From Haematospirillum jordaniae, in the sequence record NZ_CP014526.1: a stretch of DNA of 32,967 bases, one strand, 5' to 3'. Shown here piece by piece: positions 1,947 through 32,160 of this stretch; positions within the stretch are counted from its first letter, which is position 1, and every line of letters starts with the position of its first letter. The notes beneath the pieces are model-generated. The model was not told where the DNA came from. It saw nothing but the letters and a program-made list of their open reading frames with translations, and did no database searches. Made by a program: the position numbers and the translations under genes.

Positions 1947-2290
1947 CGCACACCGCCAAGGACCGTGTGCGCCGCAATATTCAGATTGGATGCACGAACG
2001 GAAAGAACCGTACGGATCTCGGCTGACCCATCAGCATGCACAACAACATTGCCCGACACCACCCGAACCCTTGGCTCCCAGCGGGTGATAGCCTCGGCGG
2101 CTGCGGCAATCACGGACAGGGTCCACGCCTGTGAGCCGGGGCTGTCGATCAATTCAAAGATATGGGACCCATAACCCCGACGCATAACCCGCGTTCCAAC
2201 GGGGGTGCACAGGATGTCTGCAACAGAATTGCGAATATCCTGCAACTCATTCACGACAGTACCTGAAACGGGATCAATGCTGATTGTCAT
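1943..2290 (-). CDS. W: Baseplate protein gpW (gp25/GPW family)
   Basis: 115-aa ORF; ATGA overlap with J; GPW/gp25-like size and position. Confidence 0.8.
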   Translation of the reverse strand: MTISIDPVSGTVVNELQDIRNSVADILCTPVGTRVMRRGYGSHIFELIDSPGSQAWTLSVIAAAAEAITRWEPRVRVVSGNVVVHADGSAEIRTVLSVRASNLNIAAHTVLGGVR

Positions 2291-2296
2291 CGCGTC

Positions 2297-2929
2297 CTAC
2301 GGGTGGCTGTGATGGTTGCTATTCGAACCGCCCGCCAGAATGTCACCGCTGGCGTGGAGGCTGCCGTTGACCGTCACGACGCCGGTCACGGCAAAATCAC
2401 CGTTCAGGCTGAAGCTGCCGGTCATGCTGGTGGCACCGCTGCCCCCGCCGCTGGCAACAATTTCGACTGTCTGGGCAGCAATACGGGCTGTCGTGGCGGC
2501 TGAAATGTCTACGGACTGCCCGGCGCTGGCCCTGACATCGCCGCCCGCGTCAACCGCAACGGACCCGGGCGTCCGAACAGACAGGTGTTGCTGCAAGCTG
2601 TCGTAGGCAACTGTGGTGCCGTCATTCCACTGGATGACATCCAGACCATCCGATGTATCCGGGGGCGGCAGGGCATCGGAATAAAGCACCTGAACAATGA
2701 CGGCATTCGCCGGGTTCCCGGACGGGCAGGCCAGAACAACCTGCGTCCCTGTCCGCAAGGGTCTCCAGCGAATAAAATTCGCCCCAATCTCGGCGGGATA
2801 GGGCAACCACCCCGTCTCGCGCCCGGAGATGGTCGCGCGGACCCGCCGCCCTTCATGATCAACACGGGTAATGACGCCGAATGCCACAAGGTTTTCAAGC
2901 CGTCTTTGTATGTCAGCCAGTCCCGCCAT
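2297..2929 (-). CDS. V: Baseplate spike/assembly protein gpV
   Basis: Inside the 2297..3103 ORF; the likely start is ATG at 2929 (MAGLADIQRRLENLVAFGVITRVDHEGRRVR...), overlapping the stop of the upstream gene. C-terminal Gly/Ser-rich spike and typical gpV N-terminal OB-fold motif. Confidence 0.8.
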   Translation of the reverse strand: MAGLADIQRRLENLVAFGVITRVDHEGRRVRATISGRETGWLPYPAEIGANFIRWRPLRTGTQVVLACPSGNPANAVIVQVLYSDALPPPDTSDGLDVIQWNDGTTVAYDSLQQHLSVRTPGSVAVDAGGDVRASAGQSVDISAATTARIAAQTVEIVASGGGSGATSMTGSFSLNGDFAVTGVVTVNGSLHASGDILAGGSNSNHHSHP

Positions 2930-3384
2930 TACCGGATACCCCGCAAGGCTTCGATGATGGTGGAGCGGATTGCCTTTCGGTCCGCTGCGGGCAGACCCAG
3001 AAGGGGGCGGGCGGCATAAAGGGCAAGGCTGCCGTTTTCCGAAACCGTGTCTGTCCGTCCATAGTGATGAACGGCAGCCACACGGGCGCGGTGGCCGCGC
3101 CAACCAACCTCGACCCCATCCGCAGTCGCTACCAGCATCATTCGTCTTGAATCGCGCAGCCTGACCATCATCTTTTTCGCGGTCCGTATCCGCCCCCGGT
3201 TGTTTCGCTTTCGCATCGGCCAGCGTTCGCCGTCCGGACCCATATGACGGGCCATGCGAGCTTGGTTACGACGCCGCATAATTTGACCAAGGCTGCGCAT
3301 CAGCTTCTTTCGCTCGCCCGGACCCAGCGCAACCAGAGCCGAACGAAGCCAGGCATCAAGAGGTTCAAACGCGTCATCACTCAT
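2929..3384 (-). CDS. S: Tail completion / virion morphogenesis protein (gpS-like)
   Basis: 151 aa; position between R and V as in P2; sequence resembles the phage virion morphogenesis family (P2 S). Confidence 0.55.
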   Translation of the reverse strand: MSDDAFEPLDAWLRSALVALGPGERKKLMRSLGQIMRRRNQARMARHMGPDGERWPMRKRNNRGRIRTAKKMMVRLRDSRRMMLVATADGVEVGWRGHRARVAAVHHYGRTDTVSENGSLALYAARPLLGLPAADRKAIRSTIIEALRGIR

Positions 3385-19522: not shown

Positions 19523-20056
19523 TCATTCCGCCTCTACAATCTTGTTGTTTTCATCGAGCGTGTACCAAGTGTCGGGTTTGATGCCATTCTCACCGACAAC
19601 CCCGACGACAACGCGCCCATGATCTGAACCGCGCGCCAAAACCCGAAACGCGATTACGCCGCCATCACTTGCCCTGGCCTTTCCGCCGCCAAGCGCATCA
19701 TCGACGAACACCAGAGCCAAGCCCGCGTGCGCTGCCTCTGCCCAACCGCTTTCACCTGCGATCGCAACATCCCAACCAATCGAATGGCCATCACAACCAG
19801 CAATCGCTATGTGATGTGAGTCAGCACATCCGCCCTCGCCAACGATCGCAACGTCCGACCACAAAGCGAGTCCACCGACCGGTGCAAAACACACAGGTCC
19901 GTAGGAAGACAATACGGAGAGCCGGTAATCAAAGCCGCGATTGAAAGCGATCGTGCCACCATAACTCTCAACTTCCATGCAGAGGTCCGAATCATCAGCC
20001 GCAGCACCCCAAACACGCTTGCCTCTGCGGAATCGGTCACGCCAGCCCATTACCAC
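19523..20056 (-). CDS. Hypothetical beta-helix-like repeat protein (early operon)
   Basis: 177-aa ORF with degenerate short repeats (DVAIVGEGGCADSHHIAIAGCDGHSIGWDVAIAGESGW). Co-directional with ogr and repA. Function unknown. Confidence 0.3.
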   Translation of the reverse strand: MVMGWRDRFRRGKRVWGAAADDSDLCMEVESYGGTIAFNRGFDYRLSVLSSYGPVCFAPVGGLALWSDVAIVGEGGCADSHHIAIAGCDGHSIGWDVAIAGESGWAEAAHAGLALVFVDDALGGGKARASDGGVIAFRVLARGSDHGRVVVGVVGENGIKPDTWYTLDENNKIVEAE

Positions 20057-20422: not shown

Positions 20423-20680
20423 TCACAGGAATGGAAACTGCATTTGATTCGGCGAAACACCGACAGCGAACGGAACGCCGACCCGCCGCCGACCCGGCAA
20501 CGAACTTTCGTTGAGAGAGCGAACCGGCGTCAGCGCGGCCACAAACATTGCGGCGCAATCCTCGCTGGTGCACAGATACGTAATCTCGCGGTACACGTCG
20601 GTAACCTGTCGGGTCTTGACCGTCCGACACCGGACGCCGCAATACGGACACTGCGTCGAATTGCTCGGACCTGCGCTCAT
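20423..20680 (-). CDS. ogr: Ogr/Delta-family zinc-finger late-gene transcription activator
   Basis: MSAGPSNSTQCPYCGVRCRTVKTRQVTDVYREITYLCTSEDCAAMFVAAL carries the C-x2-C-x22-C-x4-C pattern and the RTxxTRxVTD...FVAxL signature of P2 Ogr / 186 B. Confidence 0.75.
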   Translation of the reverse strand: MSAGPSNSTQCPYCGVRCRTVKTRQVTDVYREITYLCTSEDCAAMFVAALTPVRSLNESSLPGRRRVGVPFAVGVSPNQMQFPFL

Positions 20681-21105
20681 AGCTTCACCAAGAATTGTGA
20701 TATTGCCACAACCGCTTTAGTCAGTTCCGTGCGGCACACGGCACGCTCCTGATGGTCGATGTGACCGTCGGCCAGCGCCTCGGCCAGAACCGCAGCACCC
20801 TGTGTAATGTCGCGCATCAGTGAAAGGCCCGTGATTGTCTCGTCCCCGGTTCGCCTCACACCGGACAGCCCTGCCGGGCGCAGAACGGTTTCGGCAAATT
20901 CAACGGGCAAGACCCGGATCAGGGTCATTGCGTTGTGCCACTCCGGGCAGCTTTCGTTGCGAAGATAGCGACGGATCGCATCCTGCCCCACACCTGTGGC
21001 CGCCGCGACGTCGCCGACAGAAAACCGCCGTCCCGCTCCAACATAGAGTGACAGTGCGTCACTGAAGGCTTGACGTACGTTCCTGATCTGTTCTGGGTCT
21101 ATCAT
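20677..21105 (-). CDS. HTH regulatory protein of the early operon (CII-like role possible)
   Basis: 142 aa with an HTH around FSVGDVAAATGVGQDAIRRYL. Its first ~10 codons (MIDPEQIRNV) are duplicated at 22112 on the other side of the tandem-repeat array. Confidence 0.4.
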   Translation of the reverse strand: MIDPEQIRNVRQAFSDALSLYVGAGRRFSVGDVAAATGVGQDAIRRYLRNESCPEWHNAMTLIRVLPVEFAETVLRPAGLSGVRRTGDETITGLSLMRDITQGAAVLAEALADGHIDHQERAVCRTELTKAVVAISQFLVKL

Positions 21106-21151
21106 GATAGACCCCGCGCGGAGTTAACGGCACAGTGACCCGATGAGTGAC

Positions 21152-22042
21152 AAGAAACAGAATATTGCGTTTGCACCCATGCTCCCCCGTCTCCGGTTGT
21201 GGCCGGAGCAAAGTTCCCGGGAAGAGGCGCTGGTGCTCCGGGGGCTAAAAAAACCGCAACAAGTCGGCCCCGCACACCTTTGGCCTTTCGGCTTGGACAT
21301 GCGCGTGCGGCCCCCGGAACATGGGCATGAAAACACCGCCTTGCGGGGCGGGACCGCTTGTTGTGGGAGATTTTTAGGCTCCTGCCCCGAACCTTACCCG
21401 CAACAGGCGTGGAATGCAAGCACCGCTGTGCTGGCAAAAAGGGCGTGGCAAGAACAGAATATTGCGCGTGCACCCATGCTCCCCCGTCTCCGGTTGTGGC
21501 CGGAGAAACCACACCGGAAGAAGGTGCAGGCGCTCCGGGGGTTAAAACCGCCGCAACAAGTCGGCCCCGCACACCTTTGGCCTTTCGGCTTGGACATGCG
21601 CGTGCGGCCCCCGGAACATGGGCATGAAAACACCGCCTTGCGGGGCGGGACCGCTTGTTGTGGGAGGGTTTTAAGCTCCTGCCCCGAACGTTACCCGCAA
21701 CAGGCGTGGAATGCAAGCACCGCTGTGCTGGCAAAAAGGGTGTGGCAAGAACAGAATATTGCGTTTGCACCCATGCTCCCCCGTCTCCGGTTGTGGCCGG
21801 AGCAAAGTTCCCGGGAAGGGGTGCTGGTGCTCCGGGGGATAGAAACACCGCAACAAGTCGGCCCCGCACACCTTTGGCCTTTCGGCTTGGACATGCGCGT
21901 GCGGCCCCCGGAACATGGGCATGAAAATACCGCCTTGCGGGGCGGGACCGCTTGTTGTGGGAGGTTTCTATTCTCCTGCCCCGAACGTTACCCGCAACAG
22001 GCGTGGAATGCAAGCACCACTGTGCTGGCAAAAAGGGCGTGG
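21152..22042. repeat. Tandem repeat array: 3 copies of a 297-bp unit (about 90-95% identical)
   Basis: Units begin GAACAGAATATTGCG(T/C)(T/G)TGCACCCATGCTCCCCCGTCTCCGGTTGTGGCCGGAG at about 21154, 21452 and 21749 (period 297 = 99 codons). Long ORFs are open on both strands purely because of the 3n periodicity. Confidence 0.85.
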
Positions 22043-22108
22043 AAACGGTGTCTTGGTACTGCAATGCACGGGACACACCATCGATGTTCCTGATCTGTTC
22101 GGCATCAA

Positions 22109-22363
22109 TCATGACTGAATCCCTTCGACAATCCGTCCATGATGGCGACCCAGAGCGTGAGGGGCAGAAGAAGGTAGGCTGGTGTGGAACGCTATCGCAC
22201 GGATGATCTTGTTCGCCGTAGAAACAGACACAGATGCAGAGCCACGCTTCCAGCGTGTGAACGAAGAGCGTGAAACACCGGCATCCCTGCACACCTGGTT
22301 GATGCTAAGGCCCACAGCTTTGGCAATGCGCTCAATCTCATGTGGTGTAACAGGGTGCAACAC
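22109..22363 (-). CDS. Cro/Apl/Cox-like HTH protein, first gene of the early lytic operon
   Basis: 84 aa; HTH IERIAKAVGLSINQVCRDAGVSRSSFTRWKRG; divergent from the CI-like repressor gene. Confidence 0.55.
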   Translation of the reverse strand: MLHPVTPHEIERIAKAVGLSINQVCRDAGVSRSSFTRWKRGSASVSVSTANKIIRAIAFHTSLPSSAPHALGRHHGRIVEGIQS

Positions 22364-22469
22364 AATCAGCCTCCCTTGTGATCAGGGGGCGATTTTAGGC
22401 ACGCCTTTCTAGCAGGGCAAGCGTTTTAGTGATTTTTATAATTTACCATATTGCTAAATCAGTTCTCAA
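22364..22469. promoter_or_regulatory. Lysis-lysogeny switch region (divergent promoters/operators)
   Basis: 106-bp AT-rich intergenic region between divergent repressor-like genes; TATAAT at about 22433. Confidence 0.4.
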
Positions 22470-23522
22470 ATGATGACCGTAGGTGCGAATTTGCATACGG
22501 TAGCCTGCATGAGCATGAATGTGGGAAATAAGCAATTTCGCGAATACATAGACGCAGTGAAAGCAGTCACTGGTCTCTCACCGACTGCGATTGCTACAAA
22601 AGCTGGGCTTTCGTCATCAACGGTAAACACGCCGTACTACAGACCAGAGCTTGGCGTCACACCAACGTTACGAACAATAAACAAGATCGCCAAGGCCACC
22701 GACGTCCCGTTTGACCCCATGAGCTTTGATGAACTCGGAGCGATGGAGGACATCGACGAGAACAGGGAAAAGGCGCGGCCAAGAAAGAAGCCTGTCTTCA
22801 GGGGCGAAAAGGTCGGTTCCGACGCCTTCCAGCGATACATGAAGTCCGTTATTTCACAAACCGGACTTAGCCCCACAATGATCGCAAAAATTTCAGGTGT
22901 GTCCGGCCCAACATTGACCAATGCCTATTACACTGGAGCGCCTCCTACCCGCCGCACGGTTGACAGAATTGCGCAGGCAACCGGCATACCATTTGCGGGA
23001 GCCACAGAGGGTGTGACAACGGATGATGAGAATACTGGGCGCGACACGTCTCACATGGCGCGATGCCAACCGATACCAGTTCCACTTGATGTCTCTGCCC
23101 TTGAAAAGGACCTGCCGATAGTTTTTCTACATATAATAGAAGTGCCTTCTAACAATAAGTTAGAGGGGTACTCTATGAAGAAAAATGCCATCGAATTCTG
23201 TCGGCGTCCACCGGGCGTAGCGGGTGCACCAAATGCTTACGCAATCTATGCACCAGACGATGCTTTGGTGAAGTACGATTCCGGTGACTTGCTGTTTCTG
23301 GTGCCTGATCGGCCTGTCAAACCGGGCGATCATGCCCTCGTTCACGTGCAGTACAAGATGGACCAAGAACCCGTCGTGCACCTTGGACGCCTGACCGCAC
23401 GCAGTGCAACATCGATTACACTGTCGATCGACAGGCCGGAACCAACACAACAAAGAATTGCACTCGATAAAATCGTTTCCATTCACAAGATCCTGAGTAA
23501 TCGGGAAATTTTTGGCATCTGA
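22470..23522 (+). CDS. CI-like immunity repressor with two tandem N-terminal DNA-binding modules and a C-terminal LexA/S24-like domain
   Basis: The ~60-aa module is internally duplicated (REYIDAVKAVTGLSPTAIATKAGLSSSTVNTPYY...INKIAKATDVPF versus QRYMKSVISQTGLSPTMIAKISGVSGPTLTNAYY...VDRIAQATGIPF). The C-terminal region (YAIYAPDDALVKYDSGDLLFLVPDRPVKPGDHALVHV) resembles the S24 fold. The start may be an internal ATG (22509/22515). Confidence 0.55.
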   Translation: MMTVGANLHTVACMSMNVGNKQFREYIDAVKAVTGLSPTAIATKAGLSSSTVNTPYYRPELGVTPTLRTINKIAKATDVPFDPMSFDELGAMEDIDENREKARPRKKPVFRGEKVGSDAFQRYMKSVISQTGLSPTMIAKISGVSGPTLTNAYYTGAPPTRRTVDRIAQATGIPFAGATEGVTTDDENTGRDTSHMARCQPIPVPLDVSALEKDLPIVFLHIIEVPSNNKLEGYSMKKNAIEFCRRPPGVAGAPNAYAIYAPDDALVKYDSGDLLFLVPDRPVKPGDHALVHVQYKMDQEPVVHLGRLTARSATSITLSIDRPEPTQQRIALDKIVSIHKILSNREIFGI

Positions 23523-23543: not shown

Positions 23544-24056
23544 GTGCCGGATGGTTTTAATGCGTTGCAAAGAGAGGTTCGGTCCGCCGCATCCCGATCC
23601 CCGGAATTTTTGTCTTTTGACGGCCTAGTGGATGCTGAAGACGTCTGCGACAAGGCCGTCTGCATGGAATACACCAATGCTGACGGTGGAAAGTCGAAGC
23701 GATGGATCACGATGCGCAGCATCGACGAGGACGGACCAACGCCGAAGTTTTTCGCCTATTGCTGGGTGCGCCGCCAAGTGCGCTCCTTCCGGGCCGATCG
23801 CGTAGAAACGTTTATAGACTGTGATGGCGAATGCATCTCCGGGCGGGATTTTTTCGAGAGAATCGGCGTTAATCTCCCGCCGCCCGCCTCAGTAAGCCGG
23901 TCACGCAAGAAGAGCCGGAAAGCCGATACGGAACACAGCAGCTATAACAGCAGCAGCGGAACCGCCGCCACCACGGAGTCTGCTGGAACAGGAAACACTA
24001 TCGCAACGCTCGTCTTTATCGGCTTTGTTATTTACCTGATCAGCCTGCTCTTTTAA
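23544..24056 (+). CDS. WYL-domain protein with a C-terminal transmembrane anchor
   Basis: KSKRWITMRSIDEDGPTPKFFAYCWVRRQVRSFRADRVETF matches the WYL-domain consensus (..YL.AYC..R...R.FRxDRI). Then a Ser-rich linker and the terminal hydrophobic helix IATLVFIGFVIYLISLLF. Shine-Dalgarno AAGGAAGGAGAG, 21 nt after the CI stop. Confidence 0.5.
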   Translation: MPDGFNALQREVRSAASRSPEFLSFDGLVDAEDVCDKAVCMEYTNADGGKSKRWITMRSIDEDGPTPKFFAYCWVRRQVRSFRADRVETFIDCDGECISGRDFFERIGVNLPPPASVSRSRKKSRKADTEHSSYNSSSGTAATTESAGTGNTIATLVFIGFVIYLISLLF

Positions 24057-31686: not shown

Positions 31687-32160
31687 TTATTCACCGTCCG
31701 GCGTGTGCGGCCAGTGCGTGTCGTTGTAGTAATCGGGTGGGATGGGGGGTGCGGCTTCCAGGGCGTTGCAGCGCTCGCGAATGGCGGCGCGAAACCGGGC
31801 GATGGGCGCGGGGACGGCCTCGCCGGTTTCAATCTGACGCACGACGTACCAGTCCGTCGCCGCAAGTCGGCGGCGGGCTTCGGCTTGCACCAGTGCGGCA
31901 GAAGGCAGTACGGCTTCAGCGGCTTCAGCGGCTTCAGCGTCCGGGGACACCTCTGCGGTGGTGTCTGGCACAGGCTCAACCACCCACGCCGTTCCATCCC
32001 AGCGGGCCTGTTCGCCCTCGGCAAGCGCAGGCGGCGGGACGGTGACGCACCCGGCTGGGATCAGCCAGGTATCCGGCGAACGCGGATTGCGGTCGCTCTC
32101 ATCAAGGATCTGTTCACCGGCGTAAAGGTCGTTTTGTGTGCGATAAACTGTTTGGGACAT
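31687..32160 (-). CDS. G: Tail fibre assembly chaperone (gpG/Tfa-like)
   Basis: 157 aa. The C-terminal [29 protein letters not shown] motif is typical of Tfa chaperones. Immediately downstream of H. Confidence 0.65.

Follow-up and report, generated by a model that had tools for sequence, protein, structure and literature searches.

A tandem array in the early operon of a P2-like Haematospirillum element is probably built of three regulatory RNA modules with private pairing codes

Haematospirillum is a genus that includes human blood isolates. The 32,967-nucleotide (nt) stretch of Haematospirillum jordaniae DNA analysed here (sequence record NZ_CP014526.1; hereafter the window) carries what its genes indicate to be a P2-like prophage or phage-plasmid, and inside the early operon of this element lie three head-to-tail repeats of 297 base pairs (bp). 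What is such a repeat doing between two regulatory genes? A first-pass annotation of the window, made from the letters alone, had left the choice between a repetitive basic protein and a non-coding array, the latter consisting of regulator binding sites, RNA repeats or a recombination-generated amplification. Our preferred answer, to which we give a probability of roughly 60%, is that the array comprises three tandem copies of a non-protein regulatory RNA module, read from the minus strand in the direction of the early operon, that exert antisense control of the type associated with the c4 RNA of P1/P7 and the CI RNA of P4.

The three head-to-tail units are confirmed. Tandem Repeats Finder placed the array at 21147-22042 (period 297, 3.0 copies, 92% matches, no indels, score 1571), with a gene of 84 amino acids (aa) upstream and a 142-aa helix-turn-helix (HTH) gene followed by an Ogr/Delta gene downstream. 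The three copies align without gaps at a mean column identity of 96%. From copy to copy 20-30 of the 297 positions differ, and the differences are structured and compensatory; for this reason we take the array to be real and not an artefact of assembly, which the first-pass annotation had named as a possible undoing. An artefact is also unlikely because the identical three-unit array occurs in at least two other NCBI assemblies (L261 and L262), the same three units occur in L264, and the isolate L263 has three units of other content. Short-read Logan contigs (L265-L268) end at the array, as a true repeat would lead one to expect.

All units share one order of parts on the minus strand: an a1b1 box, a short hairpin with a run of U, a small RNA (sRNA) of about 86 nt with a three-helix 'cloverleaf' fold, and a set of alternative hairpins. 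In unit A, the first transcribed (21741-22037), the a1 box ATAGAAAC lies at 21971-21964, b1 at 21960-21948, the terminator-like hairpin at 21945-21930, the sRNA at 21914-21829, holding b' (21861-21848) and a' GTTTCTAT (21846-21839), and the alternative hairpins at 21835-21785. The middle unit B (21444-21740) has a1 TTAAAACC at 21674-21667, b1 at 21663-21651, the hairpin at 21648-21633, the sRNA at 21617-21532 with b' at 21564-21551 and a' GGTTTTAA at 21549-21542, and the alternative hairpins at 21538-21488; a possible weak promoter, TTGCAT at 21716-21711 and TAACGT at 21693-21688, precedes its boxes. Unit C, which is last and adjoins the HTH gene (21147-21443), has a1 CTAAAAAT at 21377-21370, b1 at 21366-21354, the hairpin at 21351-21336, the sRNA at 21320-21235 with b' at 21267-21254 and a' TTTTTTAG at 21252-21245, and the alternative hairpins at 21241-21191. 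When the sRNA is folded in the manner of sRNA-Xcc1, b' sits in the loop of its second hairpin and a' in a single-stranded junction; both are complementary to a1b1, and in this model loop and junction are positions that would be suited to antisense recognition. The element between b1 and the sRNA is in every unit a 5-bp hairpin with a U-run, resembling an intrinsic terminator, and we read the stretch after the sRNA as two mutually exclusive hairpins that share strands with the closing stem of the sRNA (CCGGAG / CUCCGG / CCGGAG).

The strongest evidence that these parts belong together comes from the way in which they vary. When the window units are aligned with those of related contigs, variation is concentrated in a few short segments, of which the 8-nt a1 box is the most variable; the second variable box, a', lies about 125 nt downstream of a1 and is complementary, copy by copy, to its own a1. 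The b1 box is constant, CACAACAAG, and complementary to the b' motif CUUGUUG, and in L001, where it does change, both b boxes have changed together in a compensatory manner (GGAAAAAG with CUUUUUCC). Every unit forms 7-8 of 8 possible a1:a' pairs and 12 of 13 b1:b' pairs. Within the phage group, cognate boxes average 7.9 Watson-Crick pairs out of 8 against 5.5 out of 8 for non-cognate combinations, and one permutation in 20000 reaches the observed sum. Ten distinct units hold eight different a1:a' codes, always compensatory. Each change in a' is mirrored in the a1 box in cis, so selection acts on the internal pairing. A diversity-generating retroelement was considered as the source of the hypervariable box and rejected, the changes being not adenine-specific and mirrored on the partner strand.

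The sRNA itself belongs to a family. At curated thresholds Rfam matched nothing in the whole window. A permissive search found sRNA-Xcc1 (RF02221) once per unit, on the minus strand only and over the full model (positions 1-87 of 87), with E = 0.002-0.01 and scores of 29.8, 30.1 and 32.9 bits, and the closing stem and two internal hairpins of sRNA-Xcc1 are present in all three units. Our own covariance model, R1, rests on 32 members of the family, the three window units among them; two bona fide sRNA-Xcc1 sequences were left out because MAFFT misaligned them. R1 scores the units at 93.1 (A), 94.5 (B) and 93.3 (C) bits, high values that are expected because the model was partly built from them, and it makes 101 matches among the other collected loci (about 90 loci, mostly metagenomic). 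In its alignment 95.8% of cells are paired, as against 74.2% in shuffles and 32-45% with slid partners, and 18 of 25 pairs change on both sides, counts that are inflated by the fitting of the alignment to the model; covariation supports the same topology. The family helices contain many G-U and U-G pairs, workable on one strand only, which identifies the minus strand of the window as the functional one. The 'RNA repeats' of the first-pass annotation, for which it had proposed a covariance search, have thus gained support, each unit holding a structured sRNA backed by covariation.

Window-type sRNAs form a separate, uncurated branch related to sRNA-Xcc1, because members of the branch score only 33-36 bits against RF02221 and because R1 does not recover, at E <= 0.001, the bona fide sRNA-Xcc1 loci L018 (84 bits) and L013 (52.7 bits). 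A 21-nt pattern of the apical hairpin located 118 metagenome loci. A looser gapped pattern (CCGGGGG..CCGAAAGG..CCCCCGG) in genome contigs gave, among the matches listed and as judged by nhmmer, one clear relative, L103, and three weak ones (L052, L086 and L106). L103, a contig of a metagenome-assembled genome of Magnetococcales (nhmmer E = 4e-16), is among the matches listed the closest outgroup of the window units; it has the whole layout in single copy before a Bro-N/Rha antirepressor gene, with a clear promoter (TTGACA-18-CATTAT) and the hairpin-U site at the same position as in the window units, and both of its long-range helices have changed in a compensatory manner. Its downstream box is partial, CGAAAGG at the Shine-Dalgarno sequence. 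Blastn of the whole array against phage and plasmid collections gave no matches, nor did scans of viral contigs with an exact 20-mer, a relative of the 142-aa protein and the 21-mer core pattern.

Across the family the boxes recur in an arrangement like that of phage antisense-RNA immunity leaders. At 82 of 88 distinct loci there is a 7-mer upstream of the sRNA that is complementary to its 3' part (15.5 expected), at 58 of 88 there is one downstream (12.2 expected), and at 46 of 88 the same 7-mer stands on both sides (0.46 expected). A 7-mer test was used for the downstream target because duplex energy did not discriminate in GC-rich sequence. The downstream box (a2b2), as we read the sequences, lies across the Shine-Dalgarno sequence or the start codon; L149, L157, L209 and L018 are examples. 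The bona fide loci L018 and L013 likewise appear to run promoter, a1b1, hairpin-U, sRNA, and a2b2 at the ribosome-binding site. The downstream genes that can be named encode Bro-N/Rha (L103), Rha (L144), an extracytoplasmic function (ECF) sigma factor (L159) or a nuclease. Tandem sRNA pairs occur in a distant branch, in L150 and L184, at a spacing of 324-352 bp.

Several minor features of this family were recorded. Its largest branch (soil metagenome loci L146-L260, for example L149 at 902-1400) always precedes a protein of 129-149 aa without a Pfam match, whose start codon the a2b2 boxes overlap, and the branch of L159, L184 and L150 precedes an ECF sigma factor. The hairpin-U sites of L018 (1235-1270), L144 and L151 share by eye the loop motif CCCGACAG in otherwise divergent loci. 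At 6499-7785 of L103, about 1.5 kb from the sRNA module, there are seven sub-threshold matches to CRISPR-DR9 (26.7-28.3 bits; threshold 45), and a CRISPR array may lie next to this prophage-like region.

Comparison among relatives, which the first-pass annotation had recommended, shows that the array is in motion. The two flanking genes abut with no unit between them in L010, L012 and L139, whose HTH proteins are 56-59% identical to that of the window. One unit is present in L001 (a1 TTAGAACC), L004 (a1 TTAAAACC) and L009 (a1 TTAAAACA), and two in L003 (a1 CTAGAAAA and TCAAAAAC in transcription order). The window, L261, L262 and L264 have three, with ATAGAAAC, TTAAAACC and CTAAAAAT in that order, and L263 has three with TTAAAACC, TTACAAAA and CTAAAAAT. 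The L263 array (1998-3000, GCA_012102735.1) precedes a 142-aa protein identical to that of the window; its last unit is identical to unit C and its first differs from unit B at 3 of 297 positions, so that relative to the window one unit has been lost and a new middle unit gained, which adds a further code (TTACAAAA with a' TTTTGTAG, paired through one G-U). Unit B differs at 11 of 297 positions from the sole unit of L004, and units are often nearer to units of other genomes than to their own neighbours, which points to recombinational exchange rather than to duplication in place alone. The junction between units, …CTTGCCACG|CCCTTT…, combines sequence of the left flank, …TTTCCACG|CCC, with sequence of the right flank, …CTTGTCAC|TCA, and suggests that the first duplication came about through short homology. 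With copy number (0-3) and unit content both varying among relatives, the idea of a recombination-generated amplification is supported.

The divergent single unit of L009 reveals the parts under selection: identity is 96% over the 148 nt that stretch from a1 to the sRNA end, as against 59-64% for the remnant gene start, the promoter-like stretch and the 3' spacer. Two further candidates were examined within the unit and set aside. A 27-aa hydrophobic open reading frame (ORF), MGARAIFCSCHALFASTAVLAFHACCG, follows each sRNA and was considered as a type-I toxin; L009 has AAG in place of its ATG and a 1-nt frameshifting indel. An integron attC site was considered on account of the cassette-borne sRNA-Xcc1, and no R'/R'' core pattern was seen by eye. 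The post-sRNA hairpin (21488-21538 and equivalents) exists in two quite different sequence versions, CCGGAGCACCAGCGCC… and CCGGAGCGCCTGCACC…, which assort independently of the a1:a' codes.

If the array is a stack of antisense RNA modules, it might work as follows. The sRNA would be released from longer transcripts that start at the early promoter or, possibly, at a weak promoter within the unit. In the full-length transcript a1b1 would mask b'a' in cis, and excision would let the cloverleaf form and expose b' and a'. By analogy with P4 CI and with IsrK/STnc1160, free sRNA could then pair with a1b1 on nascent early transcripts, the 8-bp a1:a' helix serving as the specificity code, and this pairing would favour a stop at the adjacent hairpin-U site or disturb ribosomes on the reading frame that passes through the array. 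Either effect would lower expression of the CII-like HTH gene, of Ogr and of later genes, and the outcome would be an RNA layer of immunity or timing above the protein repressor, in which a transcript would meet three checkpoints in succession, one per module and each with a private code. Units would be gained, lost and exchanged by recombination between related elements, and an open reading frame would be maintained across the array to keep the downstream HTH gene translationally coupled.

A number of results weigh against this reading. The RF02221 match lies below the Rfam gathering threshold (53 bits), and in 20900-22500 sRNA-Xcc1 was the sole Rfam family at E up to 10, without a C4 or isrK match. 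The folding energy of single units is unexceptional (z = -1.55 and -1.79). The terminator-like hairpin has only 5 bp and 4 U, and the 4 such sites in the region are within what shuffled sequence gives (2.6 +/- 1.8). As a promoter, the internal TTGCAT-17-TAACGT is weak, matching 6 of 12 consensus positions by our own count, and was not called by the promoter scan; its region is 64% conserved in L009, in which the key positions TTGC and TA...T are kept. With the flank that contains the promoter-like stretch so poorly conserved in L009, we regard a promoter within the units as no more than possible. The 7-mer test found no downstream a2b2 box in the window units or their close relatives, and a duplex scan of the whole window for trans targets gave the antisense strand and weak GC-rich duplexes, none of them convincing. 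A CAACAAG near 19547 was tried as a target and is within chance expectation. Since there is neither an a2b2 box in the units nor a trans target in the window, what the sRNA acts on is an inference.

The absence of both a second box and a trans target would suit a different arrangement, in which each unit is one large cis-acting RNA: a1b1 and b'a' would close a leader fold of about 150 nt, an attenuator or riboregulator acting in cis only, and the private codes would stop mispairing between tandem copies. The minimum-free-energy fold of the whole unit does pair a1b1 with b'a', exclusive of the cloverleaf, the chained alternative hairpins share strands with the closing stem of the sRNA, and no code is shared within one array in the window, L263 or L003. 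All-different codes are, however, expected by chance in arrays of two or three units if some eight codes circulate. Covariation across the family supports the cloverleaf, which is exclusive of the long helix and is the form detected as an 88-nt RNA for sRNA-Xcc1 (PMC2996969), and most family members repeat the boxes downstream at the ribosome-binding site, which requires an sRNA that acts on a separate site. We consider an exclusively cis-acting element rather improbable.

Action in trans is less probable again. The sRNAs might act on transcripts of the host or of competing elements, as regulators, sponges or anti-defence RNAs, with the array raising dosage or target range; sRNA-Xcc1 has been described as trans-acting and its five Xylella homologues are abundant with many predicted targets (PMC12189769), no target was found within the element, and the codes vary as changing external targets would predict. 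Against this stand the matching of every a' change by the a1 box in cis, which places selection on internal pairing, and the position of the targets in the wider family, directly downstream in cis.

The protein alternative, raised by the first-pass annotation because both strands stay open, concerns the 336 aa that can be read from the ATG at 22112 and that would hold three 99-aa repeats rich in Arg, Pro, Ala and Gly, the unit being 99 codons long. The ORF list contains frames of 396 aa on the minus strand and 316 aa on the plus strand over the array. The plus-strand frame is not conserved, having two stops in seven units, and was rejected as a gene. The claim of open frames stands for the minus strand alone: its frame has no stop in seven of seven units and, starting at the remnant ATG, stays open across the one, two or three units of the window, L001, L003, L004 and L009. 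It begins with an ATGA-coupled start in all five loci; in four its end falls exactly on the HTH gene's ATGA, and in L009 it lies 3 nt beyond. L009 carries 79 substitutions and 16 indel events with the frame still open, where 79 random substitutions would leave it open with P about 0.105, indels not counted; chance alone gives at least one open frame in 29% of shuffled units. Among 1.84 billion representative proteins the 336-aa translation has two hits, of 237 and 198 aa, which are the sizes of the repeat-spanning ORFs in L003 and L006, and it has no Pfam or PHROG family; no homologue outside this repeat was found that would mark it as an ordinary repeat-domain protein. The variable codons of the minus-strand ORF are 8 synonymous and 28 amino-acid-changing, resembling the other five frames (5-7 against 27-29), so that no frame shows a synonymous excess, and the variable positions follow RNA pairing. 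That the array encodes a functional repetitive protein is accordingly very unlikely. The frame is probably translated, to judge from its conservation, as a coupling ORF, with ribosomes running through the array and the HTH gene, whose own Shine-Dalgarno sequence is weak, kept translationally coupled in this way; the peptide itself would not be under selection.

Finally, we give almost no credence to a DNA-level element (iterons, regulator sites, a cruciform or an origin) or a mis-assembled repeat: location beside the genetic switch and long inverted repeats within each unit would fit the former, but the G-U pairs, many of them in the family helices, would turn into A-C mismatches in DNA or on the opposite strand, the match of the conserved core is to an RNA family, and the variable positions are compensatory, so that the regulator binding sites of the first-pass annotation are not supported; the latter is contradicted by the independent assemblies and divergent units described above.

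How does a stack of antisense RNA modules compare with known systems? By the Rfam threshold the array falls outside RF02221, and its layout, as read from the sequence, is like that of c4/CI systems minus the downstream target box. sRNA-Xcc1, found in Xanthomonas integron cassettes and prophages, is an experimentally confirmed 88-nt RNA of Xanthomonas (PMC2996969) that lies upstream of a toxic or regulatory gene, either symE (10.1101/2025.06.18.660453) or, in APSE phages, an ORF6N gene. The window units share its three-helix topology and align with the full-length model, and L018 and L013, as we read their sequences, share the order of promoter, complementary upstream box, hairpin-U and sRNA. 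The units differ in scoring 30-33 bits against a threshold of 53 and in the conserved sequence of the apical hairpin, which in their branch is AUGUCCARGCCGAAAGGCYAAAGG. The closest precedent for the tandem arrangement is in Xylella fastidiosa Temecula1, where five sRNA-Xcc1 homologues, sXF1-sXF5, lie on one strand about 381 bp apart in a phage-like integrated element; their transcripts were detected, four of the five in vesicles, and were read by the authors as vesicle-delivered trans-acting RNAs (PMC12189769). The sXF members pass the RF02221 threshold, unlike the window units, and their period is about 381 bp against 297.

In the P1/P7 c4 system a1b1, a'b' and a2b2 covary three ways, and Citron and Schuster reportedly described the covarying boxes in 1990 as the specificity determinant that is the basis of P1/P7 heteroimmunity. 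The likeness to c4 (RF01695), a processed RNA, lies in a structured RNA whose a' and b' are complementary to upstream boxes of the same transcript and, in the wider family, in downstream boxes at the ribosome-binding site of an antirepressor operon. The differences are that the window units have neither a C4 model match nor a2b2, that the downstream gene is a CII-like HTH gene and not an antirepressor, and that there are three tandem modules inside the early operon. The c4 and c4-a1b1 motifs have been listed before (PMC2864571). P4 CI has its seqA, seqB and seqC, antisense pairing causing premature termination, and Gifsy-1 has the order IsrK - STnc1160 - orf45 - anrP (PMC4825925). The order common to P4 CI and Gifsy-1 IsrK, namely promoter, short terminator-ended 5' RNA (seqA/IsrK), processed structured RNA (CI/STnc1160) and regulated gene, may recur here, the a1b1 box being directly followed by a hairpin-U site. 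The promoter is clear in L103 and L018, and the window units have 6 of 12 consensus positions and a weak hairpin-U site in each. They further differ from P4 and IsrK in that the module lies within a probably translated frame, is multi-copy, has private codes and matches neither isrK nor C4. Type III toxin-antitoxin systems (ToxI) also have tandem direct repeats of structured RNA in a phage-related operon. ToxI-type units are of about 36 nt (~34-40) and are cleaved by the toxin whose gene lies immediately behind them, a terminator and this endoribonuclease gene coming after the repeats; with units of 297 nt and an HTH regulator gene downstream, the array does not classify as a type III system.

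The codes themselves allow two readings from sequence comparison: they may be immunity specificities under diversifying selection, as in P1 versus P7, or insulators against mispairing between tandem copies. We offer tentatively, as possible but distinctly less than probable, an extension of the former, in which the array would be a stack of heteroimmune antisense-RNA alleles whose a1:a' code is under diversifying selection. Each unit would silence early transcripts, of the resident or of an incoming relative, that carry the matching a1; three units would exclude three classes of competitor; units would be traded as cassettes between elements that circulate together in one bacterial species; and the sRNA-Xcc1 class, treated to date as virulence sRNAs that act in trans, would consist of c4/CI-type cis-linked immunity RNAs. 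If true, this would be an RNA-only, recombination-built superinfection immunity locus of multiple specificity. If the codes are only folding insulators, they still give a clear example of tandem RNA genes selected to be orthogonal.

Four things lift the array above the routine: codes that are private and compensatory, units that turn over like cassettes among isolates whose downstream protein is identical, a pass-through frame that is probably translated, and the link between sRNA-Xcc1 and c4/CI; a limited literature search found no paper linking the sRNA-Xcc1 class with c4/CI-type immunity RNAs. Should the antisense reading of the array hold, an odd repeat in the switch of a P2-like Haematospirillum element would be explained as an RNA control layer above the protein repressor, and the poorly understood sRNA-Xcc1 class, which is annotated in Xanthomonas integrons, Xylella islands and APSE phages and for the most part treated as virulence sRNAs, would join the logic of P1 c4, P4 CI and IsrK. 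The class would also be enlarged by about 90 loci, the majority in soil metagenomes, which form a large branch that Rfam has missed and not curated, and the always-compensated 8-bp codes with their cassette turnover would be a compact natural example of fast-evolving, programmable RNA-RNA specificity.

The genes around the array are those of a P2-type switch region. Two sigma-70-like promoter matches on the minus strand, consensus matches only, make 22392-22469 the candidate early or switch promoter (TTGAGA-18-TAAATT at 22469-22440 and TTGCCC-17-TAAAAT at 22420-22392) upstream of the early operon. The first gene of that operon (22109-22363, minus) encodes the 84-aa HTH protein in the Cro/Cox position (HTH_31, HTH_3, HTH_26; phrog_4268, transcriptional repressor); it is the Apl/Cox-like gene of the first-pass annotation, whose HTH regulator gene becomes, in our hands, the 142-aa, weakly CII-like gene at 20677-21105 (minus; HTH_3, E = 0.0013; phrog_101, CII-like activator, E = 1.5e-4). 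The start of the latter, MIDPEQIRNV at 21105, is indeed duplicated as MIDAEQIRNI at 22112, both on the minus strand, and each ATG overlaps the stop of the preceding frame as ATGA. The remnant duplicate of the 5' end of the HTH gene (MIDAEQIRNIDGVSRALQYQDTVS; 22041-22112, minus), whose ATG overlaps the stop of the 84-aa gene, is found in all relatives with at least one unit (L001, L003, L004, L006 and L009). From this ATG the pass-through ORF of 336 codons (21102-22112, minus) traverses all three units; its TGA stop shares bases with the HTH gene's ATG, and the start of that gene is thereby coupled to it. The Ogr/Delta-type zinc-finger late-gene activator (PF04606, E = 4e-8; phrog_603) follows at 20423-20680 (minus). 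Divergently, a 350-aa double-HTH repressor-like gene occupies 22470-23522 (plus; phrog_4 and phrog_2328, transcriptional repressor), directly followed at 23544-24056 (plus) by a 170-aa gene with a weak WYL-domain match (E = 0.0012) and a match to phrog_6785, function unknown (E = 1.4e-13).

In relatives, tape-measure, gpU and gpD genes flank the switch, and the closest protein match is from Haematospirillum sp. 15-248. ParA/CbiA and resolvase genes stand beside P2-type tail genes in L001 (10748-12429), as do ParA and RepA_C genes in L010 (7038-9472) and L011, and the NCBI contigs that carry the element are 28.7-33.6 kb long, which is close to the length of the window; we may be dealing with a phage-plasmid or with a replicon that was assembled separately. 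In L001 the stretch from gpD to the repressor gene (2049-3335) holds a gene for a ParE toxin, its HTH partner and a gene for an MqsA-like antitoxin, and these resemble toxin-antitoxin or moron cargo. At 31911-31939 the window has a perfect 9-bp tandem repeat, CGGCTTCAG x 3.2.

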